A stretch of DNA of 58,804 bases from Limnohabitans sp. (GTDB lineage: Bacteria > Pseudomonadota > Gammaproteobacteria > Burkholderiales > Burkholderiaceae_C), in the NCBI GenBank assembly GCA_024641725.1, contig JAHECM010000002.1, positions 1-58,804 on the forward strand, in the 5' to 3' direction. The position numbers were made by a program, and so were the translations under genes. The notes beneath the pieces are model-generated. The model was given only the letters and a program-made list of their open reading frames with translations. It was not told the DNA's origin and did not search any database. The first letter of the stretch is position 1. Each line of letters opens with the position of its first letter. Shown here piece by piece: positions 25,630 through 43,202 of the stretch.

Positions 25630-25663
25630 AGCATAGGCAAACCTTGTGTAGCTTTCATGACAA
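25630..25663 (-). promoter_or_regulatory. Pho box and -10 for the phnG operon
   Basis: Minus strand TTGTCAT-gaaa-GCTACAC, 10 bp, TATGCT. Confidence 0.7.
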
Positions 25664-27262: not shown

Positions 27263-28735
27263 ATGAAAATCACAGTGGTAGGTGCAGGTTATGTGGGGCT
27301 GGTGACAGCAGCTTGTTTGGCCAAGTTGGGCGTCAAAGTGGTCTGTCTGGACAAAGACATTTTTCGAGTCCAGATGTTATCCAAAGGCCAAGTGCCCATT
27401 TATGAGCCAGGACTGAACGAGCTTCTCAGCCAAAATTTGGCAGAAGGTCGCCTCCAATTCACCACCGACGCGCAAATGGCGATTGAACACGCAGAGGCCG
27501 TCTTCATTGCTGTGGGCACGCCCCCCCAAGAAGATGGATCAGCCGATCTGAGCCATGTTCTGACCGTTGCTGGCTTGATCGGGCAGTACATGACCGAACA
27601 CAAGCTGGTGATCAACAAGTCAACCGTCCCCGTCGGCACCGCCGACAAAGTCCGCCAAGTCATTGCAACCGCGCTCGCGGCGCGTGAACGAACCGACCTG
27701 AGCCACGACGTGGTCTCCAATCCGGAGTTCTTGAAAGAAGGTGCAGCCATTGATGACTTCATGCACCCCGACCGGATTGTGGTGGGCATCGACGAAGGCC
27801 CGCATGCCGCGCACAGCAAACGGTTATTGCAATCGCTGTATGCCAGCTTCAACCGCCACCACGAACGCATGGTCTGGATGGATGTGCGCAGCGCCGAATT
27901 GACCAAATATGCCGCCAACGCCATGCTGGCCACGCGCATTTCCTTCATGAACGAGATCGCACAGTTGGCCGACAGCCTGGGCGCAGACATCGACAAAGTG
28001 CGCCGAGGCATTGGTTCAGACAGCCGCATTGGCCCCAGTTTTTTGTATGCAGGCTGTGGTTATGGCGGCAGCTGCTTTCCCAAAGACACCCGCGCACTGG
28101 TTCAAGCTGCCAGCGAACAGGGGCTTGAGATGGAAATGGTTCAAGCGACCGAAAAAGTCAATGCAAAACAAAAATTACGCCTGGTCGAGCGGTTGCTGCA
28201 AATCTATGGCCCTGACTTGACAGGTCTGAAGGTTGCCGTCTGGGGTTTGGCCTTCAAACCCAACACAGACGATGTGCGCGAGGCCACCAGCCGTGTACTG
28301 ATCCGCAGGCTCTTAGAACTTGGCGCCGAAGTTGCTGGGTTTGATCCCGTTGCCGGGCAAGAAACTTTGGATGCTTTGCGAACAGATTGCACAGATCAAC
28401 CGGCATTGTTGCAGGGCTTCAAATTGGCCGAATGCGAAATGCAAGCGCTCGAAGACGCAGATGTTCTGATGGTGGTGACCGAATGGAAGTTGTTCCAGAA
28501 TCCTGACTTTGAGGCCATGAAAAAAAGCATGCGTCTTCCTTGCATCTTGGATGGGCGCAACCTGTACGACCCACAAGATCTTCAGGCCATGGGCATCGCC
28601 TACCAAGGTATTGGTCGCGGCAACAGCCTGTTCAAAGAGCTGGCCGCCATGCACCAGCACTGGGATCCACTGCACAGCAGCAGCGAGCGGACTGCTGTAG
28701 CAGCGCGTCATTTGGCTGAATTTGTCAGCCGTTGA
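27263..28735 (+). CDS. ugd: UDP-glucose 6-dehydrogenase
   Basis: GAGYVG, KSTVPVGT, NPEFLKEG, GYGGSCFPKD, GLAFKP, DGRN. Confidence 0.93.
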   Translation: MKITVVGAGYVGLVTAACLAKLGVKVVCLDKDIFRVQMLSKGQVPIYEPGLNELLSQNLAEGRLQFTTDAQMAIEHAEAVFIAVGTPPQEDGSADLSHVLTVAGLIGQYMTEHKLVINKSTVPVGTADKVRQVIATALAARERTDLSHDVVSNPEFLKEGAAIDDFMHPDRIVVGIDEGPHAAHSKRLLQSLYASFNRHHERMVWMDVRSAELTKYAANAMLATRISFMNEIAQLADSLGADIDKVRRGIGSDSRIGPSFLYAGCGYGGSCFPKDTRALVQAASEQGLEMEMVQATEKVNAKQKLRLVERLLQIYGPDLTGLKVAVWGLAFKPNTDDVREATSRVLIRRLLELGAEVAGFDPVAGQETLDALRTDCTDQPALLQGFKLAECEMQALEDADVLMVVTEWKLFQNPDFEAMKKSMRLPCILDGRNLYDPQDLQAMGIAYQGIGRGNSLFKELAAMHQHWDPLHSSSERTAVAARHLAEFVSR

Positions 28736-28739
28736 GCGA

Positions 28740-29966
28740 ATGCCCAAAGGTTTTTACCGACTGATCAGCGCACAGTTTTTCTCTGGTCTGGGTGACAACG
28801 CCCTGATGATTCTGGGTATCTTTTTTTTGCGTGAGCAGGGCTACCCGGGCTGGTGGTCTCCACTGCTGAAGTTTTCCTTCACATTGGCCTATGTTTTGCT
28901 AGCGCCGTTGATGGGCCCCTTGGCCGATGCGTTCGCAAAGCCACGACTCATGGCCTTGATGAACGGACTGAAGATCGCTGGACTGCTGCTGCTGGTGTCC
29001 GGTATGCATCCGCTGTTGTGCTTTGCCCTGATGGGCATGGCCGCGGCAGCCTATGCCCCAGCCAAATACGGCCTGGTCACCGAATCTGTGCCACCCAGTT
29101 TGCTGATCCGCGCCAATGCCTGGCTGGAGGTCAGCGTTGTGATGTCGGTGATTCTGGGGGCTGCACTGGGTGGCTTGCTGATACAACTGAGCCTGCGCTG
29201 GCCCATTTTGGACAGCCTGTCATGGGGTATGTGGACATCGATTCGCAATGCATTTTTAGGTGTGCTCTGCGTTTACCTGATAGCCAGCGTGCTCAATGTG
29301 GGGCTGCCCTTGGGACGTTTCGAGCGTCCTCGGGAAGCGATCACGCGCTCGGCCATATCTTGGAGAAGCTTCTGGGTGTACCAACGCATTCTGTGGCGAG
29401 ACCCGCTGGGTCAAATCAGCTTGTTCGTCACCACCTTGTACTGGGGCGTGGGGGCCACACTGCCCTTTTTGGTTCTGCTGTGGGCCGACCAGGCCCTCGG
29501 ACTCCCCATCCAGCAAGCTGCCTACCTGCAAGCACTTGTCGCTGTGGGTGTGATTTTTGGTGCGCTTGCTGCCGCTCGTCTGTACCGCTTGCACACTGCG
29601 CGCAAAGCCATCCAGATGGGTTGGCTGTTGGTGGTTTTGCTGCCCCTTATCGCTTGGGTCGACACGCTCTGCTTGGGACTGCCCATGCTGCTGCTGGCAG
29701 GAGCCGCAGGCGGCTTGTTGCTGGTGCCGATGAACGGATTGCTCCAATACCGAGGCTTCAAGCTGCTGTCTGCAGGCCGCTCTATTGCTGTACAAGGCTT
29801 CAACGAAAACCTCAGCGTGTTGATCATGCTGGGGGCCTACAGCGCCATGCTGGCTGTTGATTGGCCACTGTGGGTCATCATGACGTTGTTCTCACTTGTG
29901 ATGGCAGCGGGTACAGGATTCGTGTGCCTGAACATGCACCAAAACGTGCAGCGGCGGCAAAGATGA
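28740..29966 (+). CDS. lplT: Lysophospholipid transporter LplT-like MFS protein
   Basis: AQFFSGLGDN, PAKYG, TTLYWG, VPMN..LQ.RG..LSAGRSIAVQGFNEN. Confidence 0.85.
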   Translation: MPKGFYRLISAQFFSGLGDNALMILGIFFLREQGYPGWWSPLLKFSFTLAYVLLAPLMGPLADAFAKPRLMALMNGLKIAGLLLLVSGMHPLLCFALMGMAAAAYAPAKYGLVTESVPPSLLIRANAWLEVSVVMSVILGAALGGLLIQLSLRWPILDSLSWGMWTSIRNAFLGVLCVYLIASVLNVGLPLGRFERPREAITRSAISWRSFWVYQRILWRDPLGQISLFVTTLYWGVGATLPFLVLLWADQALGLPIQQAAYLQALVAVGVIFGALAAARLYRLHTARKAIQMGWLLVVLLPLIAWVDTLCLGLPMLLLAGAAGGLLLVPMNGLLQYRGFKLLSAGRSIAVQGFNENLSVLIMLGAYSAMLAVDWPLWVIMTLFSLVMAAGTGFVCLNMHQNVQRRQR

Positions 29967-29993: not shown

Positions 29994-31196
29994 TCAAAAG
30001 ACCAAACTCTTGCCAATCACTTGCCGGAAGTATTTCTCCACTTGCATCGTGATGTTGTCCCAATCCATGTCGACCACGCTGTCACGGGCGGCTTGTCTCA
30101 TGGCATGGATCGCGGCGGCAGATGGCAATGTACGTTGCGCTGCATCCAAAAACTGGGCATCGGCCTCGCCCGGCACCAGCCAACCATTTCGCCCCGTGAC
30201 CACATGCTCAGCTGCTGCAGCGCAGTCAAATGCCAACACAGGTGTACCGCAGGCCAAGGACTCTAGGGTCACATTGCCAAACGTTTCCGTCAGGCTGGGG
30301 AACACAAACAGGTCGGCTGACGCGTACAACTCGGCCAATTGCTGATGGCTGCACATGCCCGTGAAAATGGCTTCCGGGCACCTGCTCTGCAATTGGTTGC
30401 GGTAAGGACCGTCGCCGGCAAGCACCAGCCGCACATCTTTGCCTTGCGTTTTCATGGCTTCAAAAGTGGCCAGGGTCAAGTCCAAGTTTTTTTCTTTGGC
30501 CAGCCTACCGACCGAGAGCAGCACCAAAGTGTCTGGCCCAGCCGCCCAACTCGATCGCAATTCGGCACTTCGGCGCTCGGGCTTGAACAAGCGCGTATCC
30601 ACGCCGCGCCCTACCACCTGAAGATTTTGGAAGCCAGAGACGGCCAATTGCTGGCGCAACTGGTGCGTGGGTACCATGGTCAGTTGGGTGTGGTTATGGA
30701 ACTTGCGCAAATACCCCATGATGGGTTTACTCAGCCAGGCCGCACCGTAATGCTTGCTGTAACTGTGAAAGTTGGTCCTGAAATCTGACGTGGTCGGTAT
30801 TTTTAAGAATCGCGCCGCTTGCAATGCAGACCAACCCAATGGCCCTTCTGTGGCAATGTGGACCACATCGGGGCGTTGCAAGCTCCATGTACGCACCAGG
30901 CCCCTTTTGTTGGGCAAGCCCAGCTTGAGTTGAGGGTAACGCGGTATGGGCAAGCCACGCTGCAGCAACTGCTCCAAGCCCGAAGCCTGCTCGGGCAATT
31001 CGTGTTTTGTCTGTCTGGGCCTGATCAATTGCACAGAATGGTTACGAGCGCACAAGCCCTGCACCAGCCGCGACAGTGTCAAGGCCACACCATTGACTTC
31101 GGGTGGCCAAGTCTCTGTCACCACAGCCAACCTGAGTGGTTGCAACTGCGGTAAGAAACTTTCCATCACAAAGCGGTCTTCAACTTGGGCATCCAT
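29994..31196 (-). CDS. GT4 glycosyltransferase (Agt/SQD2-like glycolipid synthase)
   Basis: TETWPPEVNGV, HIATEGPLG, VGRLAKEKN, FPSLTETFG. Confidence 0.85.
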   Translation of the reverse strand: MDAQVEDRFVMESFLPQLQPLRLAVVTETWPPEVNGVALTLSRLVQGLCARNHSVQLIRPRQTKHELPEQASGLEQLLQRGLPIPRYPQLKLGLPNKRGLVRTWSLQRPDVVHIATEGPLGWSALQAARFLKIPTTSDFRTNFHSYSKHYGAAWLSKPIMGYLRKFHNHTQLTMVPTHQLRQQLAVSGFQNLQVVGRGVDTRLFKPERRSAELRSSWAAGPDTLVLLSVGRLAKEKNLDLTLATFEAMKTQGKDVRLVLAGDGPYRNQLQSRCPEAIFTGMCSHQQLAELYASADLFVFPSLTETFGNVTLESLACGTPVLAFDCAAAAEHVVTGRNGWLVPGEADAQFLDAAQRTLPSAAAIHAMRQAARDSVVDMDWDNITMQVEKYFRQVIGKSLVF

Positions 31197-31254
31197 GTGC
31201 TCATCATCCTGTGTGAAGCAATGCGCCATGAAACCACACCAACAAGTCGATGGC

Positions 31255-31312
31255 ATGGCATTTTGATGACATTTTGGTTTGTCATTTTTCTTTCATCACA
31301 AACAGCCAAGAT
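31255..31312. promoter_or_regulatory. Back-to-back Pho boxes for GT4 (-) and the Mpo1-like gene (+)
   Basis: Minus ATGTCAT-caaa-ATGCCAT (31255-31272); plus TTGTCAT-tttt-CTTTCAT (31279-31296), 10 bp, CAAGAT. Confidence 0.7.
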
Positions 31313-31342
31313 CTGCATGTTTGCAACTCTACAGGTACCAAC

Positions 31343-31957
31343 GTGAAAGATTTTTTAGAAGCTCTCCGTGTCCAGCGCTGGGACGATCACCGCTATTACC
31401 ACCACTGCCGCATCAACCAATCTCTGCACCTTCTCAGCGCCATTTCGTTCGTGGCGTCCTATGCGTTGTTGTTCATTGATCCGGCCTGGGCCGCTTTGCT
31501 GGCCTGGATGGTATCAATGACTTCACGCCAATCTGGCCATTTCTTTTTTGAGCCTTTGGGCTACGACGAAGTCAACCAGGCTTCCAATGACTACAAAGAA
31601 GAAATCAAAGTGGGCTACAACCTCAGACGCAAAGTCGTGTTGTTGAGCATTTGGGCGGTCTTGCCTTTGGCCATCTACATGAATCCGGGCTTGTTTGGAT
31701 TAATGCCCGAGCACGATGGCTGGGTGAGCTATCTGCACAATGTTGGCTCCGCCTGGCTTTACTTGGGCGTGGGTGCGTTGCTCTTTCGCGGCTTACACCT
31801 GTTCATGCTCAAGGGGGTTCAAACGGGTCTGGTGTGGATGACCAAGATCGTGACCGACCCTTTCCACGACATTTACCTTTACCACAAGGCCCCTTTCCAA
31901 CTGCTTCGTGGCGAGCGCTTTGAAAAGCGCCATCCCTCACATCAGCTGCAGGCCTGA
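31343..31957 (+). CDS. Mpo1/DUF962-like histidine-motif membrane protein
   Basis: WDDHRYYHH..NQSLH, RQSGHFFFEP, DPFHD; several TM segments; GTG start at 31343. Confidence 0.65.
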   Translation: MKDFLEALRVQRWDDHRYYHHCRINQSLHLLSAISFVASYALLFIDPAWAALLAWMVSMTSRQSGHFFFEPLGYDEVNQASNDYKEEIKVGYNLRRKVVLLSIWAVLPLAIYMNPGLFGLMPEHDGWVSYLHNVGSAWLYLGVGALLFRGLHLFMLKGVQTGLVWMTKIVTDPFHDIYLYHKAPFQLLRGERFEKRHPSHQLQA

Positions 31958-31985
31958 TGCATTCGTCTGCGCCAAAGTGCCATGC

Positions 31986-32012
31986 AAAGGGCCCCGAGAC
32001 GGGGCCCTTTTT
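31986..32012. terminator. Bidirectional intrinsic terminator
   Basis: AAAGGGCCCCG-aga-CGGGGCCCTTTTT between convergent genes. Confidence 0.85.
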
Positions 32013-32016
32013 GCGA

Positions 32017-33651
32017 TCAAACCATACCCAGTGTTTCTTTCAAGATGCGGCGGCGAATGGCCTTGTTGGTCAGGACACCATCGTGCCACCACCAGCCATC
32101 GTGGCGCATCTGTTCGGCCGCCAACACGCAGCGCGCCAGCACGGCCTCAAAGTCAGCATCGCTGTAGTTGAGGCTGAAAATCAAACGCCCTGTGCCCACC
32201 CAGCTGAGGGCCAAACCATGCAAGCGCAGGTAGTACTGCAACATCCAGTTATAGCGGCTAGGCGTGGTGTAACTCAGCGTCCAGACACTGCTCATGTTGG
32301 CCGCACGCACTGGCAAGTTGTGTTCACCCATGACTGCGTTAAAGCGCTCACGGCGTGCATTCCAGCGCTCGTCCAGGTTTTCATACAGGGCCAGCGTTTC
32401 GGGTTTGTCCAATGCATCCAAAAACGCCGCCATAGAAGCCATCACCACGGGGTGCGCATTGAACGTACCTCGGGCAAAACAGATGTCTGCGGGTCGGTCA
32501 TCTCGCCAACGGCGCATCCACGAGGCGCGGCCGCACACCACACCAACTGGAAAGCCGCCGCCCAAGGTTTTTCCATAAGTCACAAGGTCCGCTTGCACAC
32601 CAAAATAGGCCTGAGCGCCACCGGGCGCCAGACGAAAACCCAGAAACACTTCATCAAAAATCAAGGCAATGCCTTTTTGAGTGCACACCTCACGCAGCGC
32701 CTTGAGCCAGCGGACGTAGGCCTCACGGTCATAAGCCGCGCTGCGGCTGCTGTCCAGCAAGGTCGAGTCACCTGGCGCATTTTTGTTCGGATGCAAAGCC
32801 TGCAGCGGATTGATCAGCACGCAGGCAATGTCATCGCGGCCACGCAGCACATCAAGACTGCCCTCGCTCATGTCGGCCAGGGTGTAGGTCTCCCTCGGGG
32901 GCATGGGATTGCCTGGACCGGGCTGAACGTCTTCCCACCAGCCGTGATAAGCACCGCAGAATCGAACCAGGTATTTTTTGCGGGTGTGGTAGCGTGCCAC
33001 GCGCACGGCTTGCATCACGGCCTCGGTACCCGACATGTGGAAGGACACTTCGTCCATGCCAGAAAGTGCGCACAACCGCGCCGCATTGCTGGCCACACAA
33101 GGGTGGTAAGCCCCCAGCGCCGGGCCCAAGGCCACCGCCTGCGACAAGCCCTGGGTCATGGTGCGTTTGTAAAAGTCTGCCCCCATGACGTTGACACCGT
33201 AAGAGCCCGTCAGGTCATAGAATTTTTGACCATCCAGGTCGGTGATCTGCACACCGTCAAACGACTGAACAAAAGCGCCCACCTTCAGGTGTTCGCGCAC
33301 GATGGCGCTGAACTGGAACGGCACACGGTAAGCCGCAGTGAACTGCAAGTCCGATATGTGCTCGCGCGCTTGCTGTGTGATGCTCAAGGTGTTGGCATGG
33401 CGCTCGCGCAACTGCTGCGCCACGCCATAAAAAGCTTTCTTGCGCTGTTGGGCCAGCGCTTCGGGTGCGCCATCGCACGAGAAAAACCGCTCCTCATCGA
33501 ACCGGTAGGCCGGCAACAACCGCGCAAGCCCCTTGGCCATTTTCGAGTGGCCCGCCAACGAACGGTGTTTAGCACGCGAAAGCTGCAAACGTCGATAAAT
33601 GCGGGGGCTCAACGCCGCCAGCAAACCCAAACCAATCCAGGTAGTTTCCAA
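32017..33651 (-). CDS. Class III PLP aminotransferase (HemL-like fold) with N-terminal hydrophobic extension
   Basis: SGTEAVM, GAYHGW, IFDEVFLGFR, ADLVTYGKTLGGG, GTFNAHP; 544 aa, about 100 aa longer than HemL. Confidence 0.85.
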   Translation of the reverse strand: METTWIGLGLLAALSPRIYRRLQLSRAKHRSLAGHSKMAKGLARLLPAYRFDEERFFSCDGAPEALAQQRKKAFYGVAQQLRERHANTLSITQQAREHISDLQFTAAYRVPFQFSAIVREHLKVGAFVQSFDGVQITDLDGQKFYDLTGSYGVNVMGADFYKRTMTQGLSQAVALGPALGAYHPCVASNAARLCALSGMDEVSFHMSGTEAVMQAVRVARYHTRKKYLVRFCGAYHGWWEDVQPGPGNPMPPRETYTLADMSEGSLDVLRGRDDIACVLINPLQALHPNKNAPGDSTLLDSSRSAAYDREAYVRWLKALREVCTQKGIALIFDEVFLGFRLAPGGAQAYFGVQADLVTYGKTLGGGFPVGVVCGRASWMRRWRDDRPADICFARGTFNAHPVVMASMAAFLDALDKPETLALYENLDERWNARRERFNAVMGEHNLPVRAANMSSVWTLSYTTPSRYNWMLQYYLRLHGLALSWVGTGRLIFSLNYSDADFEAVLARCVLAAEQMRHDGWWWHDGVLTNKAIRRRILKETLGMV

Positions 33652-33690
33652 AAGATGCTCCTTGGCAATCCATCAATGACCTCCCTTTGT

Positions 33691-33719
33691 ATGAACCTCT
33701 GGTGACAACTTCATGAACA
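33691..33719 (-). promoter_or_regulatory. Three-repeat Pho box for the aminotransferase, overlapping the psd ATG
   Basis: Minus strand TGTTCAT-gaag-TTGTCAC-caga-GGTTCAT. Confidence 0.65.
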
Positions 33720-34609
33720 TTCGAAAAACCTTGCAACGCTGTCTGCAAAATGAAGACATCAACTTCTTGTTGACCAACCGCATCCCGCGCATCGCCCTGA
33801 CAAGGTTCATGGGCTGGTGGAGCGGTTTGCGTCACCCTTGGGTGGTTCGCCCATCTTTGGCGGTGTGGCGCCTGTTCAGTGATTTGGACCTGTCAGAAGC
33901 CAAACAAACCAAATTTTCCAGCTTGCAAGAATGCTTCACCCGCGAACTGCGCCCTGGCCTGCGCCCCATCGATGCGAGATCGGATGTAATCACTTCGCCA
34001 TGTGACGGCATCGTCGGGGCCATGGGATTGATTGAGCAGGGCACGGTTTTTCAGGCCAAGGGATTTCCCTACAGCCTGCGCAGCTTATTGGGGAACTCAC
34101 CGCACAGCCAGCCTTGGCTCAAGACACTAGAGGGTGGTCACTTCATCACTCTGCGCCTGACATCCAGCATGTACCACCGCTTCCATTCGCCCAGCGACGC
34201 CACACTCACACACGCGACCTACATCAGCGGCGACACATGGAACGTCAACCCTATTGCACTCAAACGGGTTGAACAACTTTTTTGCAAGAACGAACGTGCC
34301 ATCTTGCACATGCGCCAAGACAAAAACGATCTCCCTTACCTGATCGTGCCAGTGGCCGCTGTTCTGGTGGCCAGCATGCGTTTGCACGCGGCCGATGTGT
34401 TGTTTCATTTGCGCTACCGTGGCCCCAACGAGATCGCCTGCCAGGCCCAGTACGGCAAGGGGGATGAAATGGGCTGGTTCCAGCATGGCTCAACCATTTT
34501 GGTGTTTTTTCCCCCAGGTGTTACTCCTGTTGAAGGTCTTCAAACGGGCAAGCAAATCCAGATGGGGCAGGCCTTGGTGAGGCATTCAAGCGTCACACAA
34601 TTGACATGA
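33713..34609 (+). CDS. Phosphatidylserine decarboxylase-family proenzyme (HGST variant)
   Basis: FTRELR.G.RP, SPCDG, YHRFHSP, KNER, GWFQHGST. Confidence 0.85.
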   Translation: MNIRKTLQRCLQNEDINFLLTNRIPRIALTRFMGWWSGLRHPWVVRPSLAVWRLFSDLDLSEAKQTKFSSLQECFTRELRPGLRPIDARSDVITSPCDGIVGAMGLIEQGTVFQAKGFPYSLRSLLGNSPHSQPWLKTLEGGHFITLRLTSSMYHRFHSPSDATLTHATYISGDTWNVNPIALKRVEQLFCKNERAILHMRQDKNDLPYLIVPVAAVLVASMRLHAADVLFHLRYRGPNEIACQAQYGKGDEMGWFQHGSTILVFFPPGVTPVEGLQTGKQIQMGQALVRHSSVTQLT

Positions 34610-34623
34610 ATTCAAGGCAATCT
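34590..34623 (+). promoter_or_regulatory. Pho box and -10 for ppk2
   Basis: GCGTCAC-acaa-TTGACAT, 10 bp, CAATCT, then ATG at 34630. Confidence 0.6.
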
Positions 34624-34629
34624 TCGGCA

Positions 34630-35538
34630 ATGGCTGATCCAACTGAACTGTCCCCCCAATTTTTGACACAACTGCGCGAAGACTTGCTCGACACGCTTGA
34701 CGAAGAGTTCGAGCTCGAGATGGAAGACCGCTTAGGCGAAGACGCTGCGCGGCCGAGCCAAAGCAGCTCCAGTCGGATGCAATATTTTCGAGAACTGCTC
34801 AGACTCCAGTCTGAGCTGGTCAAATTGCAAGACTGGGTGGTGCACAGCAAGCACCGCATGGTGATTTTGTTTGAGGGGCGCGATGCAGCTGGTAAAGGTG
34901 GCGTCATCAAACGAATCACCCAAAGGCTGAACCCACGGGTGTGCCGGGTTGCCGCATTGCCAGCGCCAAATGACCGTGAAAAAACCCAGTGGTATTTTCA
35001 GCGCTATGTTTCACACCTGCCCGCCGCTGGAGAGATCGTCTTGTTCGATCGCAGTTGGTACAACCGTGCAGGCGTTGAACACGTGATGGGTTTTTGTTCA
35101 GACGATGAATACGAAGAGTTTTTCAGATCGGTCCCTGAGTTTGAAAAAATGTTGGTGCGCAGTGGCATCCAGTTGGTCAAATACTGGTTCTCCATCACCG
35201 ATGATGAGCAACACGCACGATTTGTGGGTCGCATCCAAGATCCACTCAAGCAGTGGAAACTCAGTCCCATGGACCTTGAAAGCCGCCGTCGCTGGGAAAA
35301 CTACACCGTGGCCAAGGAAACCATGCTGGAGCGAACCCACATCCCCGAAGCACCTTGGTCCATTGTGCAGGCTGTAGATAAGAAACGTGCTCGATTGAAC
35401 TGCATTGACCATCTGCTGTCCCTGGTGCCTTATCACGAAGTGCCGCACTCCGAGGTTCAATTGCCAGCACGAGTTCGCAATCCCGACTACATCAGACACC
35501 CAGCCCCGCCAGAAATGTTTGTGCCAGAAAAATATTGA
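34630..35538 (+). CDS. ppk2: Polyphosphate kinase 2
   Basis: FEGRDAAGKGG, QWYFQRY, FDRSWYNR, WKLSPMD; start could be 34606. Confidence 0.96.
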   Translation: MADPTELSPQFLTQLREDLLDTLDEEFELEMEDRLGEDAARPSQSSSSRMQYFRELLRLQSELVKLQDWVVHSKHRMVILFEGRDAAGKGGVIKRITQRLNPRVCRVAALPAPNDREKTQWYFQRYVSHLPAAGEIVLFDRSWYNRAGVEHVMGFCSDDEYEEFFRSVPEFEKMLVRSGIQLVKYWFSITDDEQHARFVGRIQDPLKQWKLSPMDLESRRRWENYTVAKETMLERTHIPEAPWSIVQAVDKKRARLNCIDHLLSLVPYHEVPHSEVQLPARVRNPDYIRHPAPPEMFVPEKY

Positions 35539-35561
35539 GCTTTCGCTGATGTGTTTTTGTT

Positions 35562-35595
35562 TTGTCATTGATTTGACAAATTCACGTCACATAAT
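35562..35595 (+). promoter_or_regulatory. Pho box and -10 for ppx
   Basis: TTGTCAT-tgat-TTGACAA, 10 bp, CATAAT. Confidence 0.75.
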
Positions 35596-35624
35596 TCGGG
35601 TTTGCAGTTCAAACCGTCACTCGC

Positions 35625-37106
35625 ATGCAAGCCAAAAATCTTTTCGCCGCCGTGGATCTGGGCTCCAACAGCTTCCGGCTCGAAATCGGTCAACTCGACG
35701 CGGGTCATTTGCGACGGGTCGAATACCTGAAAGAAACGGTTCGCCAAGGCAACGGGCTGGACGCCGACCGCAACTTGAGCGACGAAGCGATGCAGCGCGG
35801 CTGGGACTGCCTGGCCCGCTTTGGCGAACGCATGGCTGGATTTCGTCCCAGCCAGGTGCGTGCAGTGGCCACCCAAACCATGCGCGAAGCGCGCAATCGC
35901 GATGTTTTTTTGGCCAAAGCCAAAAACATTTTGGGCTTCCCGATCGAGGTGATTGCGGGTCGCGAAGAAGCCCGGCTGATCTACCTGGGGGTGTCGCACT
36001 TGCTGCCGCAGTCGGACGAGCGGCGTCTGGTGGTGGACATTGGCGGGCGCTCGACCGAGTTGATCTTGGGGCAGCAACTGCTTGCCCACACCTTGGAGTC
36101 CTACCGCGTGGGCAGCGTGGCTTGGTCCATGCGTTATTTTCCGAATGGTCAGTGGACCGCTTCGGCCTTTCAAGCCGCTGAGATCGCCGCCAAAGCCATC
36201 TTGGACGAATCCCTGAGCCTCTACCCCCGCAGCAGCTGGGACAAAGCTTACGGATCATCGGGCACCATTGGCGCGGTCAGCGACGTGCTACACGCTGCAG
36301 GTTGGCCTGCCGAGGTGATCACGCGCGAGGGCTTGGACTGGCTGATGGAAAAATTGCTCAAAGCCCAGCGCCCCGATCAGCTCAAGCTGGAAGGCATCCG
36401 TGACGACCGCCGCCCTGTGATTGCCGGCGGTCTGTCGGTGCTTCGGGCCGTTTTTGACTTGCTGCAGATCGACGAGATGACAGCCGCCCAAGGCGCGCTC
36501 CGACACGGCGCGCTGTTTGACTTGCAAGACCGAGAAAGCCCCGCCGCCGATGTGCGAGCACAAATGATCGGATGGCTCACGCAGCGCTTTGGTGTCGACA
36601 CGGCACAGTCCGAACGCGTGGCCCGAACAGCCCAAGCATTGCTCACTCCTTTGCTGGGCAAGGCCAATGCGGATCGGCATTTGCGCAAATTGCGCTGGGC
36701 AGCCCAACTGCACGAAATTGGCATGCGGATTTCGCACAGCGACTACCACAAGCATGGCGCTTACATCCTTGAAAACACCGATCTGCCCGGCTTCACGCTG
36801 GACGAGTTGCACCGCTTGGGCTTGCTGGTCTTGGGGCATCGGGGCAAGCTGCGCAAGCTCGACACCCAATTGGCAGACCGCTTGTTTGTCTTGCAGCTGA
36901 TGTCGCTTCGCTTGGCGGTGATCCTTTGCCACGCGCGGCGCGACCCGGAGATTTCTGGGTTTCAGCTGGACTGGGACGACAAGCGCAAAACCGTGCGACT
37001 CAAATGGCCTGCTGACTGGCCCAAGCAATGGCCCCAATCGGCGCATTTGCTGCGCGAAGAAACCCAAGCCTGGCAAAAGACCGACTGGGTGCTGGCTTTG
37101 GCTTGA
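35625..37106 (+). CDS. ppx: Exopolyphosphatase (Ppx/GppA)
   Basis: DLGSNSF, G.EEARLIY.G, DIGGRSTE, GALRHG, LHEIG, YHKHGAY. Confidence 0.95.
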   Translation: MQAKNLFAAVDLGSNSFRLEIGQLDAGHLRRVEYLKETVRQGNGLDADRNLSDEAMQRGWDCLARFGERMAGFRPSQVRAVATQTMREARNRDVFLAKAKNILGFPIEVIAGREEARLIYLGVSHLLPQSDERRLVVDIGGRSTELILGQQLLAHTLESYRVGSVAWSMRYFPNGQWTASAFQAAEIAAKAILDESLSLYPRSSWDKAYGSSGTIGAVSDVLHAAGWPAEVITREGLDWLMEKLLKAQRPDQLKLEGIRDDRRPVIAGGLSVLRAVFDLLQIDEMTAAQGALRHGALFDLQDRESPAADVRAQMIGWLTQRFGVDTAQSERVARTAQALLTPLLGKANADRHLRKLRWAAQLHEIGMRISHSDYHKHGAYILENTDLPGFTLDELHRLGLLVLGHRGKLRKLDTQLADRLFVLQLMSLRLAVILCHARRDPEISGFQLDWDDKRKTVRLKWPADWPKQWPQSAHLLREETQAWQKTDWVLALA

Positions 37107-37170
37107 TTCGCCACTGTCGCCCAGCGCCTGCTCACCCAAGCGTGGCGCAAAGCATTGACCAACTTTGATG

Positions 37171-37197
37171 AATCGGTATAAACTGTATACACCGATT
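37171..37197. promoter_or_regulatory. Inverted repeat, putative operator
   Basis: AATCGGT-ATA-aactg-TATac-ACCGATT, 17 bp upstream of the ATG at 37215. Confidence 0.5.
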
Positions 37198-37214
37198 AAC
37201 TCAAGGAAACCTCA

Positions 37215-37748
37215 ATGACTGCCATTGCCACGCCAACACCCGTCACCGAAACCGCTGCCGCCCCAGCCACCAAGGTGGTTAAAAAAACTGTAACAGCCAA
37301 GAAGACCAGCCCTGCCAAAAAAGCCAGCGCAGCCAAGAAGGCCAGCCCCGCCAAAAAAGCCAGCGTAGCCAAGAAGGCCAGCCCCGCCAAAAAAGCCAGC
37401 GCAGCCAAGAAGACCAGGCCCGCCCAAAAAGCCAGCACGGTGAAAGCGGTCAAGACGGCCAGTGCAGCACCCGCCTCGGGCAAACCCAACGCCAAAGCGC
37501 AGGCCCCTCAGGATGCGGGCAAAGACAAAAAGTTGAAAGTCATTCGGGACAGCTTCACCATTCCGAAAAATGAATTCACGCAAATTGGGGACATGAAAAA
37601 ACGTGCCATGGCCCTGGGCCTGGATGTCAAGAAAAGCGAATTGATCCGCTCGGGCTTGATGGCTTTGTCGGGCATGACGGACACCAGCTTCAAAAAGGCC
37701 TTGGCCAATGTACCCACCCTCAAAACGGGCCGCCCCGGCAAAAACTGA
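37215..37748 (+). CDS. Histone H1-like Lys/Ala-rich protein with conserved-looking C-terminal domain
   Basis: AKKASP/AKKASA repeats, then IRDSFTIPK...VKKSELIRSG...LKTGRP; RBS AAGGA. Confidence 0.8.
   Translation: MTAIATPTPVTETAAAPATKVVKKTVTAKKTSPAKKASAAKKASPAKKASVAKKASPAKKASAAKKTRPAQKASTVKAVKTASAAPASGKPNAKAQAPQDAGKDKKLKVIRDSFTIPKNEFTQIGDMKKRAMALGLDVKKSELIRSGLMALSGMTDTSFKKALANVPTLKTGRPGKN
37296..37439 (+). repeat. Coding tandem repeat, 8 x 18 bp with 36-bp higher-order period
   Basis: Alternating gccaagaag(a/g)ccag(c/g)cc(c/t) and gcc(a/c)aaaaagccagc(gca/gta/acg) units. Confidence 0.92.
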
Positions 37749-37751
37749 GAC

Positions 37752-38222
37752 TCAGAGTCTCTCGGGGGTGGTCACCGTCAAAATGACCGTTTGGTCCAGC
37801 CCTTCGCGCTGACGCCCCCGCAGCCACCAGACGGCCCCTTTGCGAATGGGGCAAGACTGCGCCCCCATGCCCAGCAGTTGCGCTGCGACTTCACCCAGTG
37901 AGGGCTGGTGCCCTACCAGCAGCACCGGAAATTTGGCATCGGGCCATTGGGCTGTTTCCAAGATGTCTTGCACACTGGCCCCCGGCGACAGCGCATCACG
38001 GACCTTGTATTTGCGCTCCAGGGCCTTCACGGTCTGCACCGCCCGAACGGCAGGGCTGCACAAAATGCGGGTGCCTTCGGGCAGCTGGCGGTCCAGCCAC
38101 TGAGCCATGCGGGCCGCGTGTTTCTCGCCCCGGGCGGTCAAGGGGCGCAGCAAATCGCCCTCTTGGGCATCGGGCCCTTCCAAGTCGAGGGCTTCGGCGT
38201 GTCGCCACAAGATGAGGTCCAT
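37752..38222 (-). CDS. sixA: SixA-family phosphohistidine phosphatase
   Basis: LILWRHAEA, RPLT.RG, SPAVRA.QT, LVGHQP. Confidence 0.88.
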   Translation of the reverse strand: MDLILWRHAEALDLEGPDAQEGDLLRPLTARGEKHAARMAQWLDRQLPEGTRILCSPAVRAVQTVKALERKYKVRDALSPGASVQDILETAQWPDAKFPVLLVGHQPSLGEVAAQLLGMGAQSCPIRKGAVWWLRGRQREGLDQTVILTVTTPERL

Positions 38223-38236
38223 TTGAGGCTCCTGAA

Positions 38237-40291
38237 TCAGGCTTGGCCGTACCTGGCCATCAAAGCCGCTTGCGCGCCGGGGCCCGGGCGTTCACGCCCC
38301 ACGGCCAAGTACCGGCCATCGGCCTGCATGTCCCAAGCGTCACGTTGGTCGTGCAAATAAGCCAACAAACATTCATCAACGATGCGCTGGCGCAGCACCG
38401 GGTCCAGCACGGGCCAGGCCACCTCAATGCGGCGCATCATGTTGCGGTTCATCCAGTCGGCGCTGGACAAGTACAGCGACTCCGTCTCGCCGGCTCGAAA
38501 GTAAAAAACGCGGGAGTGCTCCAAAAACTGACCAATCACCGAGCGCACTTTGATGCGGTCGGTTTGTCCGGGCAAGCCTGCGGGCAACATGCAGGCCCCG
38601 CGCACGATCACATCAATGCGCACACCGGCTTGCCCTGCCGCCATCAAGGCTTCGATCAGGGCCGCATCGGTCAGCGCGTTCATTTTGAGCACGATGCGGG
38701 CGTCCTCGCCGCGCGCAGCGGCTTTGGCGGTTTGCTCGATCTGGCGCAGCATGCGGGCGTGCAAATGGAAAGGCGCGACCAGCAAGCGGTGCATGCGCGG
38801 CAGCGGATTTTGGCTGGCCAAGTGCACAAACAACTGCTCCATGTCCGCCGTGATTTTGGGGTCTGCCGTCAGATAGCTGATGTCGGTGTACAGCCTGGCG
38901 GTGCGCGGGTTGTAGTTGCCGGTGGACAGGTGGCCGTAGCGGCGCAGGTGCCGTCCCTCGCGGCGAGTGACCAGCAGCATCTTGGCGTGGGTCTTGAGCC
39001 CCACCACGCCGTACACCACCTGCACGCCAATGGATTCGAGTTGTTCCGACCAATTGATGTTGGCTTCTTCGTCAAAGCGGGCTTTGAGCTCGACCACCGC
39101 CGTGACTTCCTTGCCCCGGCGCACCGCTTCTCTGAGCAGATTCATCATGGCCGGGTCACTGCCGGTGCGGTAGATGGTTTGCTGGATGGCCAGCACATGG
39201 GGGTCGTCTACGGCTTCACTCAAAAACGCCAGCACGCCGTCAAAACTCTCAAAAGGCTGGTGAATCACCACATCGCCTTGGCGCAGCCGGGCCATGATGG
39301 CCCCCACCTTGGGCAAGCCCACCGGAAAACAGGCCTTGTAGGGTGCAAACACCAGGTCAGGCCGGCCCACCAGGTCGATCAGTTGCATCAAGCGCACCAG
39401 ATTGACCGGGCCATTGACCCGGTACAAGGCCTGCTCAGGCAAATCGAACTGCTGCAACAAAAAGTCGGACAACTGCGCAGAGCAGTTGGCCGACACCTCC
39501 AAGCGCACCGCCGCACCGTAATGGCGGTGCTCTAGACCTTGGCGCAAGGCGGTGCGCAGGTTGACGACTTCGTCTTCATCGACCGCCAAGTCCGAGTGGC
39601 GCGTGACCCGAAATTGCGAGAACTGGTCGACGCCCCGACCAGGAAAAAGATCGGCCAAATGCGCGCGCACCACGCTGGACAGCAGCACAAAGGTCACCCC
39701 GTCGCCATGGATTCGGTCTGGCAAGCGGATCAATCGGGGCAACACGCGGGGCACTTTGACGATGGCAATCTCGTTTTTGCGGCCAAAGGCGTCTTTGCCT
39801 TGCAGGTGAACAATGAAGTTCAAAGACTTGTTGGCCACCTGAGGCAGGGGGTGCGAAGGGTCCAGGCTGACGGGCAGCAGCAAAGGTTTGACCTCTTTGT
39901 TGAAGTAGGCCTTGACCCAGCGCCGCTGGGCTTCATTGCGCTCGCCATGCGACAAAACGCGGATGCCCTGGGCCTCAAACGCGGGCAGCAATTCTTGGTT
40001 GTAGAGCCGGTATTGCTCTTGCACCATGGTGCGGGCGCTGTCGGCAATGGCCTGCAAGCCTTGCAGGCTTTGCGCCCCAAGCTGCAATTCTGGATGCGTC
40101 GCGGCCAAATGGCTTGCGCCACGCACTTCAAAAAACTCATCGAGGTTGGATGACACGATGCACAGGTAGCGCAAGCGCTCCAGCAAAGGCACATCGTCAC
40201 GCCTTGCCCAGTCGAGCACGCGGTCATTGAAGGCCAATATGCTCAGGTCGCGGTCCAACAAGGGCGGCAAATGGGCGGCTGCTTCAGCCAT
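38237..40291 (-). CDS. ppk1: Polyphosphate kinase 1
   Basis: SSNLDEFFEVR, HQPFESF, ELKARFDEE, KTHAK, TGNYN, FLEHSR, SADWMNRN. Confidence 0.97.
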   Translation of the reverse strand: MAEAAAHLPPLLDRDLSILAFNDRVLDWARRDDVPLLERLRYLCIVSSNLDEFFEVRGASHLAATHPELQLGAQSLQGLQAIADSARTMVQEQYRLYNQELLPAFEAQGIRVLSHGERNEAQRRWVKAYFNKEVKPLLLPVSLDPSHPLPQVANKSLNFIVHLQGKDAFGRKNEIAIVKVPRVLPRLIRLPDRIHGDGVTFVLLSSVVRAHLADLFPGRGVDQFSQFRVTRHSDLAVDEDEVVNLRTALRQGLEHRHYGAAVRLEVSANCSAQLSDFLLQQFDLPEQALYRVNGPVNLVRLMQLIDLVGRPDLVFAPYKACFPVGLPKVGAIMARLRQGDVVIHQPFESFDGVLAFLSEAVDDPHVLAIQQTIYRTGSDPAMMNLLREAVRRGKEVTAVVELKARFDEEANINWSEQLESIGVQVVYGVVGLKTHAKMLLVTRREGRHLRRYGHLSTGNYNPRTARLYTDISYLTADPKITADMEQLFVHLASQNPLPRMHRLLVAPFHLHARMLRQIEQTAKAAARGEDARIVLKMNALTDAALIEALMAAGQAGVRIDVIVRGACMLPAGLPGQTDRIKVRSVIGQFLEHSRVFYFRAGETESLYLSSADWMNRNMMRRIEVAWPVLDPVLRQRIVDECLLAYLHDQRDAWDMQADGRYLAVGRERPGPGAQAALMARYGQA

Positions 40292-40324: not shown

Positions 40325-40358
40325 ATTGTTCAAGGCTTTGGTGACAGCCGTGTGACAG
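40325..40358 (-). promoter_or_regulatory. Near-consensus Pho box for ppk1, inside the GT4 3' end
   Basis: Minus strand CTGTCAC-acgg-CTGTCAC, 10 bp, AACAAT; further CTGTCAT at 40318-40324. Confidence 0.85.
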
Positions 40359-41406
40359 GCCAAGGCAGTTGCCCCGCCTTGTGGTGCACAGACACCAAAT
40401 GCGAGGCAAACAGGCGGGCCGCATGGTTCCAGCCAAAAGCCAGGGCCCGCTGGCGCGCTTGCTGGCGAGGGATCGACAAGGCCTGCAGGACCGCCGACCG
40501 CAAGTCCGCGTCCAGCACCCCGCCTTGCGCGGGTCCGGCATCGGCGCCCAGCACTTGCAACGGCCCATCCACAGGGTAGGCGGCCACCGGCGTCCCTGTG
40601 GCCATGGCTTCGAGCATGACCAGGCCGAAGGTCTCGCTGCGTGACGGAAACACAAACACATCGGCGGCCGCGTACACCTTGGCCAATTCGTCGCGCGGCA
40701 ATACGCCCATCCAGTGCACCCCGGGGAAGCGGGCTTTCAGGCTGGACTCCAAGGGGCCCACCCCGCACACCACTTTGGTGCCGGGCAAATCCATCGCCAA
40801 AAACGCGTCAATGTTTTTTTCGTAAGAAATGCGCCCCACAAACAAGCACACAGGCCGGGGGAGTTTTGCCAACGCTTGCAGCGCCAGTGTTTGCGCATGG
40901 AAACCGAACAAATGGGTGTCCACGCCGTGCGTCCAGGGCCGCAACTCGGTAAATTTGCGCTGCGCCAGCATCTCCAGGACCCCTTGGGTGGGCACCATGA
41001 CGCCCGCCGAGGGCTTGTGAAAATGCCGAAACAAGGCGTATCCCCAAGCCAGAGGCACACGCAATGCCGAATTCAAAATTTCAGGGAACTTGGTGTGGAA
41101 TGCCGTGGTGAAGGCCCATTGGCGCTTGCGGCAAACCGCGCGCCCGGCCCAGCCCAGCGGGCCTTCGGTGGCCAGATGCACCGCATCGGGCTGAAGGGTC
41201 GAGAGCATTTGTTCGAGCGCTGCACGGGGGCGCACGGCCAAGTCAATGCCGGCATAGCCCGGGCAGGGCCGGTGCTTGAATTGGCCAGGGTGAATCACAT
41301 GCACCGTGATGCCCATGGACTCCAATGAGGTCACCAACTCTTGCAAGGTGGTGACCACGCCGTTGATTTGCGGATGCCATGCGTCGGTGATGAGTGCCAG
41401 TTTCAT
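40330..41406 (-). CDS. GT4 glycosyltransferase (Agt-like glycolipid synthase)
   Basis: TDAWHPQINGVV, HLATEGPLG, FHTKFPE, FPSRSETFG; coupled to the plcP-like gene. Confidence 0.88.
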   Translation of the reverse strand: MKLALITDAWHPQINGVVTTLQELVTSLESMGITVHVIHPGQFKHRPCPGYAGIDLAVRPRAALEQMLSTLQPDAVHLATEGPLGWAGRAVCRKRQWAFTTAFHTKFPEILNSALRVPLAWGYALFRHFHKPSAGVMVPTQGVLEMLAQRKFTELRPWTHGVDTHLFGFHAQTLALQALAKLPRPVCLFVGRISYEKNIDAFLAMDLPGTKVVCGVGPLESSLKARFPGVHWMGVLPRDELAKVYAAADVFVFPSRSETFGLVMLEAMATGTPVAAYPVDGPLQVLGADAGPAQGGVLDADLRSAVLQALSIPRQQARQRALAFGWNHAARLFASHLVSVHHKAGQLPWPVTRLSPKP

Positions 41407-42299
41407 GCAGTGATTCCCTTTGGGGGCAGCAACACGCCCGCTGTCGAATCCTCGCCCCAGCGGATGATTTCCAGCCGCCCGTCCATGTGTTCCACCAAGG
41501 CGGTGCGGCTCTCGACCCAGTCACCATCGTTGCAATAAAGCACGCCGTCGATGTTTCGGATTTCGGCATGGTGAATGTGGCCACACACCACACCGTCATA
41601 GCCACGCTTGCGCGCTTCGTGCGCCACAGCCACCTCAAAGTCAGAAATGAAGTTGACCGCCTTTTTGACCTTGAGCTTCAGATAAGCCGACAAGGACCAG
41701 TAGCCCAAGCCCATGCGGCCGCGCAGGCTGTTCAGATGCCGATTGATTTTGAGGGACAGCTCGTACAGCCAATCCCCCAAATAGGCCAGCCATTTGGCGA
41801 CTTGGATCACGCCGTCAAAATGGTCGCCATGGATCACCCACAGGCGCTGGCCGTTGGCGGTCACATGGGTCGCCTCGAACAAAACGTCGACACCCCCAAA
41901 AGCATGGCCCACGAAGTGGCGTGCAAACTCATCGTGGTTGCCTGGCACGTACATCACCCGGCAGCCCTTGCGCGCGCGACGCAACAATTTTTGAACGACA
42001 TCGTTGTGGCTTTGGGGCCAGAACCAGCGTCTGCGCAGTTGCCAGCCATCCACAATGTCGCCCACCAAATACAGCATGTCGCTGGGGTGGGATTTCAGAA
42101 AGTCCATCAAAGCGTCTGCCTGAAAACCCGGCGTGCCAATGTGCAGGTCTGAAATGAAAATCGCCCGCAAGCGCGGGCGACTTGACGCCGAATCATCGCC
42201 GTCGTCAGCGCCTGACTCCGCCGGGTTCAAGCCAGCGGTGAGGCCCTCTGCCCAAGCCGCCGGCCAGGTTTTGCTCGCCCCCAGGGTCATTGGCGCCAT
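41403..42299 (-). CDS. plcP: PlcP-like metallophosphoesterase (phospholipase C; LpxH-like fold)
   Basis: ISDLH, VGDIVDGW, PGNHDE, HGD, CGHIH, NDGDWVES; adjacent to the Agt-like GT4; exact start uncertain (42290-42302). Confidence 0.8.
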   Translation of the reverse strand: MAPMTLGASKTWPAAWAEGLTAGLNPAESGADDGDDSASSRPRLRAIFISDLHIGTPGFQADALMDFLKSHPSDMLYLVGDIVDGWQLRRRWFWPQSHNDVVQKLLRRARKGCRVMYVPGNHDEFARHFVGHAFGGVDVLFEATHVTANGQRLWVIHGDHFDGVIQVAKWLAYLGDWLYELSLKINRHLNSLRGRMGLGYWSLSAYLKLKVKKAVNFISDFEVAVAHEARKRGYDGVVCGHIHHAEIRNIDGVLYCNDGDWVESRTALVEHMDGRLEIIRWGEDSTAGVLLPPKGITA

Positions 42300-43120
42300 C
42301 AAACCGCTCCCAAAAAATGCTTTCTGTAGCGCGCGGGCATGTCAGCGATGCGCATCATCATGGGCAAGTCGGCGGTGTTGAAGTCGGGGTCCCAGGCAGG
42401 TGCCCCCAGCACTTTGGCCCCCAGCCGCAGGTAGCCTTTGATCAACGCGGGCGGCTCGACGCTGAGCTGCTGCTCCAGTGCATCCACCGGCAAGGCCAAA
42501 CGGGGCAAGACATGGTGCTCGATCGGGGCCAAGTGCGTTTGGCGCAATTGGTGCCAAATGCTGGCCGCCACATCACCGCTGACCACGCCGTTGTGCAGCA
42601 TCGGGATGCTGGCGCAGCCAATCATGGTGTCGAGCTGGTTGCGCACCATGAACTCGGTCAATGCACCCCACAGGGCCATGATCACTCCGCCATGGCGGTG
42701 GGCGGGGTGCACGCAGCTGCGGCCCAACTCCACCATGCGATCGCGCAGACCACGCAGCCGGGTCAGGTCGAACTCGGTGTCGCTGTAGGTGCTGCCGGCG
42801 CGCTCGGCTTGGGTGGGGGTCAGTACGCGGTAGGTGCCGACCACTTGGCGTGTGGCCACATCGCGCACCAGCAAATGCTCGCAATAGTCGTCGAACAGAT
42901 CAACGTCGTGGCCTGCCAGCGGGGTCGATAGACGCGCGCCCATCTCGCCCGCGAACACGTCAAACCTCAACTTTTGGGCTTCCCGAACTTCGTCCAGGTG
43001 CTTGGCCCAACCCACTTCAATGCCCGTTTGGACAATCGGCGCAGGGGATGGGCGATGAAGTGACCCCCGTGGCAACTGAACCGGGGACAGGGCGAACGTG
43101 GGGCTGGGCAACTCTTTCAT
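42299..43120 (-). CDS. olsB: OlsB-like GNAT N-acyltransferase (ornithine or amino lipid synthesis)
   Basis: AQKLRFDVF, D.FDDYCEHLLV, VGTYR, ELGRSCV, PPALIKGYLRLGA, DPDFNTAD. Confidence 0.75.
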   Translation of the reverse strand: MKELPSPTFALSPVQLPRGSLHRPSPAPIVQTGIEVGWAKHLDEVREAQKLRFDVFAGEMGARLSTPLAGHDVDLFDDYCEHLLVRDVATRQVVGTYRVLTPTQAERAGSTYSDTEFDLTRLRGLRDRMVELGRSCVHPAHRHGGVIMALWGALTEFMVRNQLDTMIGCASIPMLHNGVVSGDVAASIWHQLRQTHLAPIEHHVLPRLALPVDALEQQLSVEPPALIKGYLRLGAKVLGAPAWDPDFNTADLPMMMRIADMPARYRKHFLGAV

Positions 43121-43146
43121 GGCGAGGTCTCCTTTGAACTGCCCCG

Positions 43147-43202
43147 ACTTTGAAAGCTTCGGGTGACGCCGGCATGTCAACACCATGAAATTTGTGTGAC
43201 GC
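43147..43202 (-). promoter_or_regulatory. Four-repeat Pho box and -10 for olsB-plcP-GT4
   Basis: Minus strand GCGTCAC-acaa-ATTTCAT-ggtg-TTGACAT-gccg-GCGTCAC, 10 bp, CAAAGT. Confidence 0.8.

Follow-up and report, generated by a model that had tools for sequence, protein, structure and literature searches.

What is made by a Mpo1-like membrane protein, a class III aminotransferase and a second phosphatidylserine decarboxylase (PSD)-family enzyme whose genes lie side by side in a bacterial phosphate island? The locus belongs to a Limnohabitans sp. (assembly GCA_024641725.1, contig JAHECM010000002.1), of which a stretch of 58,804 nt, below called the window, was analysed. The original prediction, made from the letters of the window, held that the three genes encode an undescribed pathway for a phosphorus-free amino lipid. 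This idea was supported by gene linkage, by gene fusions and by lipid N-methyltransferases encoded beside relatives of the genes, all read from sequence. The trio, here Mpo, aminotransferase and PSD2, together with a GT4 glycosyltransferase, form one co-inherited module that rather probably makes, from a sugar lipid, a mimic of phosphatidylethanolamine that bears an amine and is free of phosphorus. The observed basis is linkage, co-inheritance, fusions, conserved cofactor residues and conserved Pho-box-like repeats. The module is real, widespread and undescribed; no description was found in a literature search that left most subscription journals and supplements outside its coverage.

Results

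A module inherited as a unit

A draw of 401 Pseudomonadota genomes contained 25 carriers of the aminotransferase, 26 of Mpo and 26 of PSD2, all from the same set of genomes, which gives a module frequency of about 6% (26/401). The 26th carrier, G162, had all three genes broken within one locus (C5:13281-19266), either by decay or by assembly errors. The shared set of genomes supports the original prediction, and so do the fusions described below. Within the family of the window organism the module was found in 40 of 150 other genomes, and one genus-mate was without it. The viral contigs searched contained no relative of the module.

Gene neighbourhoods were compared in 101 aminotransferase loci, a set that included 80 from close Burkholderiales relatives and at least two apparent duplicates. 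The whole trio was present in 92 loci, and the other nine ended at contig edges. Conserved linkage had been set beforehand as a point on which the original prediction could fail, and the adjacency of the trio was kept across genomes. This included the rearranged family f42, in which aminotransferase, a PHP-GT4 fusion, PSD2, Mpo and often ugd follow each other on a single strand (5/5 loci long enough). A GT4 gene was present in 83 of the 101 loci, and among the 80 related loci ugd was found in 35 and lplT in 45. The predicted trio was right as a list of genes, but incomplete: the GT4 also belongs, and the core consists of GT4, aminotransferase and Mpo1-like protein, because a second clade has no decarboxylase nearby. 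The PHP-GT4 fusion proteins of f42 (L101:3674-6352, L106, L107, L103 and L104) were about 890 aa long, and the PHP domain may stand in for the phosphoesterase PlcP. An OlsF-like gene followed the fusion in L101.

Fused proteins and two lipid N-methyltransferases

The second clade came from a metagenome scan with distant homologues, covering 80 of 587 confirmed loci. Wherever a metagenome locus had a close Mpo part (41/41), a single reading frame encoded this part and the aminotransferase. A separate GT4 gene usually lay upstream of the fusion, with PlcP-like, PHP, pst or phn genes nearby. Directly 3′ of the fusion, a PEMT-family methyltransferase was encoded in 22 of the 35 loci with room for it, and PF04191 scored above its cut-off in 8/8 tested. 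Among the 101 loci, a PmtA-like methyltransferase was found beside or fused to Mpo in nine; in families f44, f50 and f55 and on a Sphingomonas replicon it adjoined Mpo in all eight loci fetched. Its top NCBIfam match was NF045882 in 7/7 tested, at 125-151 bits and thus below the cut-off of 390. Clusters of the methyltransferase-Mpo fusion had 53, 45, 21 and 12 members, sizes that may count unfused members.

PmtA and PEMT enzymes favour ethanolamine-like amines, and the presence of these two lipid N-methyltransferases, which are unrelated, suggests an amine as the head group. The independent recruitment of a PmtA-type and a PEMT-type enzyme was the strongest sign that the product may be a lipid with a methylatable amine. 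The window genome (2.27 Mb, 77% complete) encoded no close methyltransferase partner, the best candidates showing 35-36% identity over about 100 aa, and its product would therefore stay unmethylated.

Other apparent fusions were rejected. A triple fusion of GT4, aminotransferase and Mpo (P0326) was the sole member of its cluster, and in 20/20 related loci the GT4 frame was separate or closed by a stop. An apparent PSD-Mpo fusion (P0323) looked frameshifted, as did several further long Mpo matches.

The aminotransferase

The aminotransferase matched PF00202 with 105 bits (cut-off 30.5), and the fold match confirmed a class III pyridoxal phosphate (PLP) enzyme. The motifs K361, D333, SGTEA and YHG were kept, the first three being invariant in 43 family members, over which 83 positions were invariant in total. 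Identity to solved class III enzymes was 21-28%, and the best solved relative was the AMT domain of MycA, both by sequence (E 3.5e-48) and by Foldseek (1.3e-29, 27% identity). The long N-terminal extension that had been predicted was found as about 100 residues ahead of the Pfam domain. The predicted hydrophobic N-terminus was also present, but it is short and modest in the window protein (no 19-residue window above 1.3; best 13-residue window 1.55); hydrophobicity of the anchor was at least 1.6 in 85 of 99 orthologues.

The closest named relatives were from Limnohabitans (78%). A family tree made by a quick method, with two very distant outgroups and with HemL and MycA omitted, gave three sub-clades and showed no donor. 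Against the HemL equivalog model TIGR00713, the window protein reached 164 bits, below the cut-off of 527. Both ends of the true hemL of the window genome were found at the edges of contigs C293 and C155, and a full-length hemL above the cut-off was present in 5/5 other carriers tested.

The PSD2 decarboxylase

PSD2 matched PF02666 with 183 bits and passed TIGR00163. The self-cleavage residues D98, H155 and G259-S260-T261 were conserved in 97/97 orthologues, and H158 was also kept in the window copy. Family-specific residues were R148, M153, N177 and H258; at the positions equivalent to Y137, S166, D142 and the leucine of LGST in E. coli PSD, R, N, M and H were found in 96-97 of 97 orthologues. 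Y137 and S166 of the E. coli enzyme bind the lipid phosphate (PMC7952604), and both were replaced (Y137 to R, S166 to N) in 97/97. The changed pocket suggests an altered substrate, phosphate loss not being proven.

PSD2 was not the sole housekeeping psd of its host. A second psd, whose RDYHR and LLGST motifs are the usual ones, was located on contig C280 of the window genome, and a separate psd was found beside a pssA-like gene in 5/5 other carriers tested. PSD2 itself departed from a housekeeping PSD in having R148, N177 and HGST and in not being paired with pssA.

The Mpo1-like protein

Residues H16, H20, H29, H66, D14, D15, E70, D172 and D176 of the Mpo1-like protein were invariant in both clades. 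Three fused forms matched PF06127 with 14.7-15.3 bits. The Atlas neighbours of one homologue were named DUF962/Mpo1-like, with PF06127 assigned to 12% of the members in one cluster, and a remote membership in PF06127 is likely. A structural model (pLDDT 89) gave no Foldseek match at E 0.001 and a best VIA Z of 5.8 over short helical pairs, and the sequence profile found nothing meaningful in the PDB. A Mpo1-like gene was also seen alone among transposases on a Bradyrhizobium plasmid (L110:7920-8639), and genome G390 contained a second copy.

Pho-box-like repeats

The Mpo and aminotransferase genes were each preceded by Pho-box-like repeats of their own, as had been claimed, and so was GT4. The sites were scored with an ad hoc matrix (maximum 20) built on a general Pho-box consensus and defined after these sites had been seen. 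The scores were 19.1 for Mpo, 17.0 for the aminotransferase and 16.6 for GT4, and a score of at least 17 was reached at 43 of 4.53 million genome positions. Elsewhere pstS scored only 15.2, phnC 18.0, ppx 16.5 and ppk1 19.6, the highest value in the window, while six unrelated genes scored 11.5-14.9. Because the matrix was set after the sites had been seen, these scores are partly circular, and counts in orthologues are the better test. A sense-strand box scoring at least 17 lay upstream of the aminotransferase in 76/99, of Mpo in 74/91 and of GT4 in 44/74 orthologues, which come from related and not independent loci; shuffled sequences gave less than 1%. The module is likely to be switched on by phosphate starvation.

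The upstream unit of the aminotransferase box overlaps the start codon of PSD2, and this antisense box over the psd2 start was kept in 73/98 orthologues; PhoB binding there could repress psd2. One riverine RNA study contained 12% of the sequence words searched; short contigs (run X1) covered parts of the module and were uninformative on level, strand and induction. PhoX or PhoD alkaline phosphatase genes flanked the module in L013, L089, L074 and L102.

Eukaryotic homologues

A search confined to long proteins of 953-2720 aa gave 14 matches, of which a single one was a triple fusion of bacterial type. The other 13, proteins of 988-1292 aa, had a GT2-like N-terminal domain and membrane helices, followed by an aminotransferase 41-46% identical to that of the window. 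The GT2-like domain matched PF00535 weakly in 2/13, and an HND motif was conserved in 12/12 checked; the Atlas score to GT2 clusters was 0.92 with 149-161 shared features, which is a lead only. Named sources were Euglena gracilis, E. mutabilis and the chlorarachniophytes Bigelowiella natans and Partenskyella glossopodia, and fragments from Pavlovales sp. CCMP2436 fell within one cluster. By the Mpo profile, none of the 13 GT2-type fusions had an Mpo domain. In a near-length search the best 120 matches were all close bacterial-type proteins, so that shorter algal forms were invisible there. Aminotransferase-Mpo fusions were also encoded on two contigs with eukaryote-looking neighbours (L152:3536-5683 and L153:3293-5917); the L152 protein belonged to a 461-member cluster, and L153 had a divergent GT4.

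The locus and its surroundings

All open reading frames of the trio were intact and, as the original prediction had described, adjacent; ugd, lplT and GT4 lie directly upstream. Features are collected below; gene labels outside the Pfam and NCBIfam scans were read from the translations.

Features of the module and its neighbours in the window
Feature	Position	Strand	Remarks
ugd, UDP-glucose dehydrogenase	27263..28735	+	likely UDP-glucuronate supplier
lplT, lysophospholipid transporter	28722..29966	+	above NCBIfam cut-off
GT4 glycosyltransferase, fourth module member	29994..31256	-	open frame to 31256, probable start near 31196
Pho-box-like tandem repeat facing GT4, ATGTCAT-N4-ATGCCAT	31255..31272	-	
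Pho-box-like tandem repeat before the Mpo1-like gene, TTGTCAT-N4-CTTTCAT	31279..31296	+	
Mpo1/DUF962-like membrane protein, putative iron oxygenase	31343..31957	+	204 aa, GTG start
Perfect GC-rich inverted repeat with A/T flanks, between Mpo and aminotransferase ends	31986..32011		seen in sequence
Class III PLP aminotransferase	33651..32017	-	544 aa, TTG start behind AAGGAG
Three Pho-box-like units with 11-bp spacing, before the aminotransferase	33691..33719	-	
PSD2, second PSD-family pyruvoyl decarboxylase	33713..34609	+	298 aa
OlsB-like GNAT, PlcP-like metallophosphoesterase, second GT4 (Agt-like)	40330..43186	-	Pfam family

The trio is not one operon: Mpo and aminotransferase converge on the inverted repeat, a likely two-way terminator, and aminotransferase and PSD2 diverge. 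The phosphate island is complete. It comprises phoR, phoB, phoU and pstSCAB, together with an HD-domain gene, phnCDE and a C-P lyase cluster that includes DUF1045 and phnN (4529-11092 and 15961-27165), and leads through ugd, lplT and GT4 to the trio. Further along lie ppk2, ppx, a gene for a lysine/alanine-rich histone-like protein, a sixA-like gene and ppk1 (34606-40358), and then the OlsB-like, PlcP-like and second GT4 genes, of which the plcP-like/GT4 pair occupies 40330-42302. We take these two to be PlcP and Agt from the gene order and from Pfam family, without a curated model. The run is likely to serve diacylglycerol (DAG) supply. Its OlsB-like GNAT scored 155 bits against a cut-off of 350, with no olsA seen adjoining, and may belong to a second lipid route.

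Between pstS and the phn genes, the segment 11214-15960 had a lower GC content (0.49-0.54) and encoded adenylate/guanylate cyclase-like, PP2C-like phosphatase and CorA-like proteins as well as one that is presumably SiaB-like. A 1384-aa low-complexity repeat protein rich in S, A and D, possibly a surface protein, was encoded at 52184-56338.

Discussion

A proposed pathway

In the proposed pathway, PlcP would free DAG, Ugd would make UDP-glucuronate and GT4 would join the two parts as glucuronosyl-DAG. The Mpo1-like metal enzyme would then use O2 to cleave C-C bonds beside the sugar hydroxyls, C-C cleavage being the chemistry of Mpo1, and an oxo group would be left for the membrane-anchored PLP enzyme to transaminate. 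PSD2 would strip the remaining carboxyl via its pyruvoyl Schiff base, which would give a terminal primary amine, and the PmtA-like or PEMT-family enzyme, where present, would methylate this amine to a betaine.

The single likeliest skeleton for the product, put forward tentatively, is that of diacylglyceryl carboxyhydroxymethylcholine (DGCC), which is DAG-O-CH(COO-)-O-CH2CH2-N. Starting from the glucuronide, the ring would be opened between C3 and C4 and would lose C3; the anomeric acetal would be kept, C2 would become the carboxylate and O5-C5-C4 the ethanolamine arm. C6 may be lost spontaneously once the beta-oxo acid has formed, and a clade that lacks PSD would then be accounted for. Extended to whole organisms, the same tentative reading is that DGCC is made when glucuronosyl-DAG is carved by a Mpo1-type oxygenase, aminated, decarboxylated and N-methylated; the route would be a widespread alternative to BtaAB in freshwater, soil and other bacteria, the window organism would make an unmethylated phosphatidylethanolamine-like form, and the algal glycosyltransferase-aminotransferase fusions would be the eukaryotic counterpart.

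Several observations weigh against the sugar-lipid pathway or its DGCC version. The DGCC scheme is chemically incomplete: an oxidation at C4 with no enzyme assigned to it would be required, or else a beta-decarboxylation by PSD2; PSDs decarboxylate alpha-amino acids and are not known to perform beta-decarboxylation. The Mpo1-like protein itself matched PF06127 with E 0.0035 and 17.9 bits, below the 24-bit gathering cut-off, and a lone Mpo gene was present on eight Bradyrhizobium plasmid records. Four loci with full flanks (L099, L102, L105 and L109) had no GT4 within about 9 kb, and the best NCBIfam match of GT4 was a phosphatidylglycerol glycosyltransferase (149 bits, cut-off 480), so the acceptor may not be DAG. 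A sense-strand Pho box scoring at least 17 preceded PSD2 in just 1/98 orthologues, and a profile search found PSD in 0/49 fusion-clade and eukaryote-type loci, of which only 19 reach 10 kb; PSD2 is either a proteobacterial addition or encoded elsewhere in the fusion clade. The altered PSD2 pocket is no proof of phosphate loss, because Y137 is already arginine in 15% of the PSD family (PMC7952604), and arginine is able to bind phosphate as well as carboxylate. Among the 14 long matches (search range 953-2720 aa), no named diatom, Emiliania or dinoflagellate was found. One survey of nine algae counts on both sides (PMC6630716). Annotated glucuronosyl-DAG was confined to E. gracilis, Pavlova lutheri and Pleurochrysis, and annotated DGCC to the latter two, which speaks for the pathway; against DGCC, E. 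gracilis has the gene and glucuronosyl-DAG with no annotated DGCC in that survey. DGCC has been described as solely marine (PMC10685587), and its tentative detection in an aquifer was termed unprecedented for bacteria (PMC7242380).

Other explanations were considered. The enzymes could act on acyl chains or phospholipid head groups, with GT4 merely a co-regulated neighbour; Mpo might shorten a 2-hydroxy fatty acid, and the PLP enzyme might aminate a fatty carbonyl or eliminate phosphate from an amino-phospholipid. The AMT domain of MycA (mycosubtilin), the best solved relative of the aminotransferase, acts on a fatty acyl thioester, and the four full loci without GT4 also fit. Yeast Mpo1 is an Fe(II) dioxygenase for the alpha-oxidation of a 2-hydroxy fatty acid (PMC9624242), which agrees as well. 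The adjacency of GT4 was, however, kept over three gene orders and two clades, the algal homologues are fused to another, GT2-like domain, and identity to MycA is just 27%, which leaves this explanation unlikely. Slightly less likely again is that the core makes a ring-intact amino-glycolipid, such as an amino-deoxy-hexosyl or amino-pentosyl DAG, with PSD2 as a separate accessory for amino-phospholipids. The missing Pho box of PSD2 and its absence from the fusion-clade loci searched would suit such a division of labour, and C-6′ sugar aminotransferases are class III enzymes. A putative keto-glucuronosyl-DAG in phosphate-starved Burkholderia cenocepacia (PMC13691135) means that oxidised glycolipids exist. 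Yet PSD2 was never apart from the other two genes in the 401 genomes and lies inside the co-directional f42 operon, and the methyltransferases have a preference for ethanolamine-like amines.

It is improbable that spare hemL and psd copies, or a non-lipid small-molecule or envelope pathway, were gathered in the phosphate island by chance. The names given by JGI and NCBI, glutamate-1-semialdehyde aminomutase and asd, and the TIGR00163 match would agree with spare copies; the HemL score (164 versus 527), the true hemL and psd located apart, the strict co-inheritance, the fusions and the lipid methyltransferase partners speak against them. The conversion of a sugar lipid into a phosphorus-free amino lipid is the reading that we prefer. 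Phosphorus-free substitute lipids permit microbial growth where phosphate is scarce, and the module supplies named genes for undescribed lipid chemistry and makes the gap in DGCC synthesis directly testable. If bacteria do make DGCC or a desmethyl form, the use of DGCC as a marker of eukaryotic algae would need revision. Phosphate-starvation proteomics tables could list the genes of the module.

Comparison with known systems

DGCC, a lipid abundant in algae, is known from haptophytes and diatoms as an ether/acetal-linked mimic of phosphatidylcholine made under phosphorus stress (PMC5835749, PMC10685587). Both papers state that knowledge of DGCC synthesis does not go beyond methionine labelling, and this labelling fits a methylation step. 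On paper, the skeleton is derivable from a uronide; both lipids, glucuronosyl-DAG and DGCC, occur in Pavlova, and the aminotransferase family is represented in a Pavlovales genome. In contrast to the module, DGCC is known from algae and not shown in bacteria, and it offers no enzyme for comparison.

DUF3419, which we take to be BtaA, was found in 35 of the 401 genomes and in 0/25 module carriers, where 2.2 were expected (P 0.09, not significant). In one genus with both systems, 106 genomes divided into 37 with the module, 18 with DUF3419 and 51 with neither, and no genome combined the two; an overlap of 6.3 was expected, and P would be 2e-4 for independent genomes, whereas these are kin. Neither the module nor the window genome (77% complete) contained a DUF3419 gene. 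The exclusion agrees with two systems serving the same need, that for a zwitterion without phosphorus, and the history of sub-clades could yield the same pattern. The BtaAB/BTA1 route to diacylglyceryl trimethylhomoserine (DGTS) also makes a phosphorus-free zwitterionic lipid and completes its amine by S-adenosylmethionine (SAM) methylation (PMC10685587). It differs in that BtaA moves an aminocarboxypropyl group from SAM in one step.

Among single enzymes, yeast Mpo1 may be comparable to the Mpo1-like protein, a small helical membrane protein with an invariant His/Asp/Glu cluster and a weak match to PF06127. The bacterial protein differs in its sub-cut-off Pfam score, extra C-terminal helices, a TDPxxD motif and fusions to aminotransferases or methyltransferases. 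PSD2 shares with E. coli PSD (PMC7952604; PDB 7cnw) the fold family, the equivalents of D90, H144, H147 and S254 and an amphipathic N-terminus, whereas Y137R, S166N, D142M and the change of LGST to HGST are fixed in PSD2, an extra copy away from pssA. The aminotransferase retains the class III PLP fold, PLP lysine, aspartate and phosphate cup of HemL and the MycA AMT domain, and is set apart by a membrane anchor, a 100-residue extension and NPLQ in place of the usual EP motif.

The closest setting is that of PlcP and Agt-type GT4 enzymes, which make glucosyl- and glucuronosyl-DAG under phosphate stress in B. cenocepacia (PMC13691135) and M. trichosporium (PMC9239053). The phosphate-starvation context, a phosphoesterase that would supply DAG and a GT4 for the glycolipid are common to both, the latter two as predicted functions in the window. 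Those routes end at the glycolipid, and the accessible text of the two reports names no aminotransferase, decarboxylase or Mpo1-like enzyme. The module would work alongside PlcP-Agt and is not a member of it, with three extra enzyme families that are inherited together.

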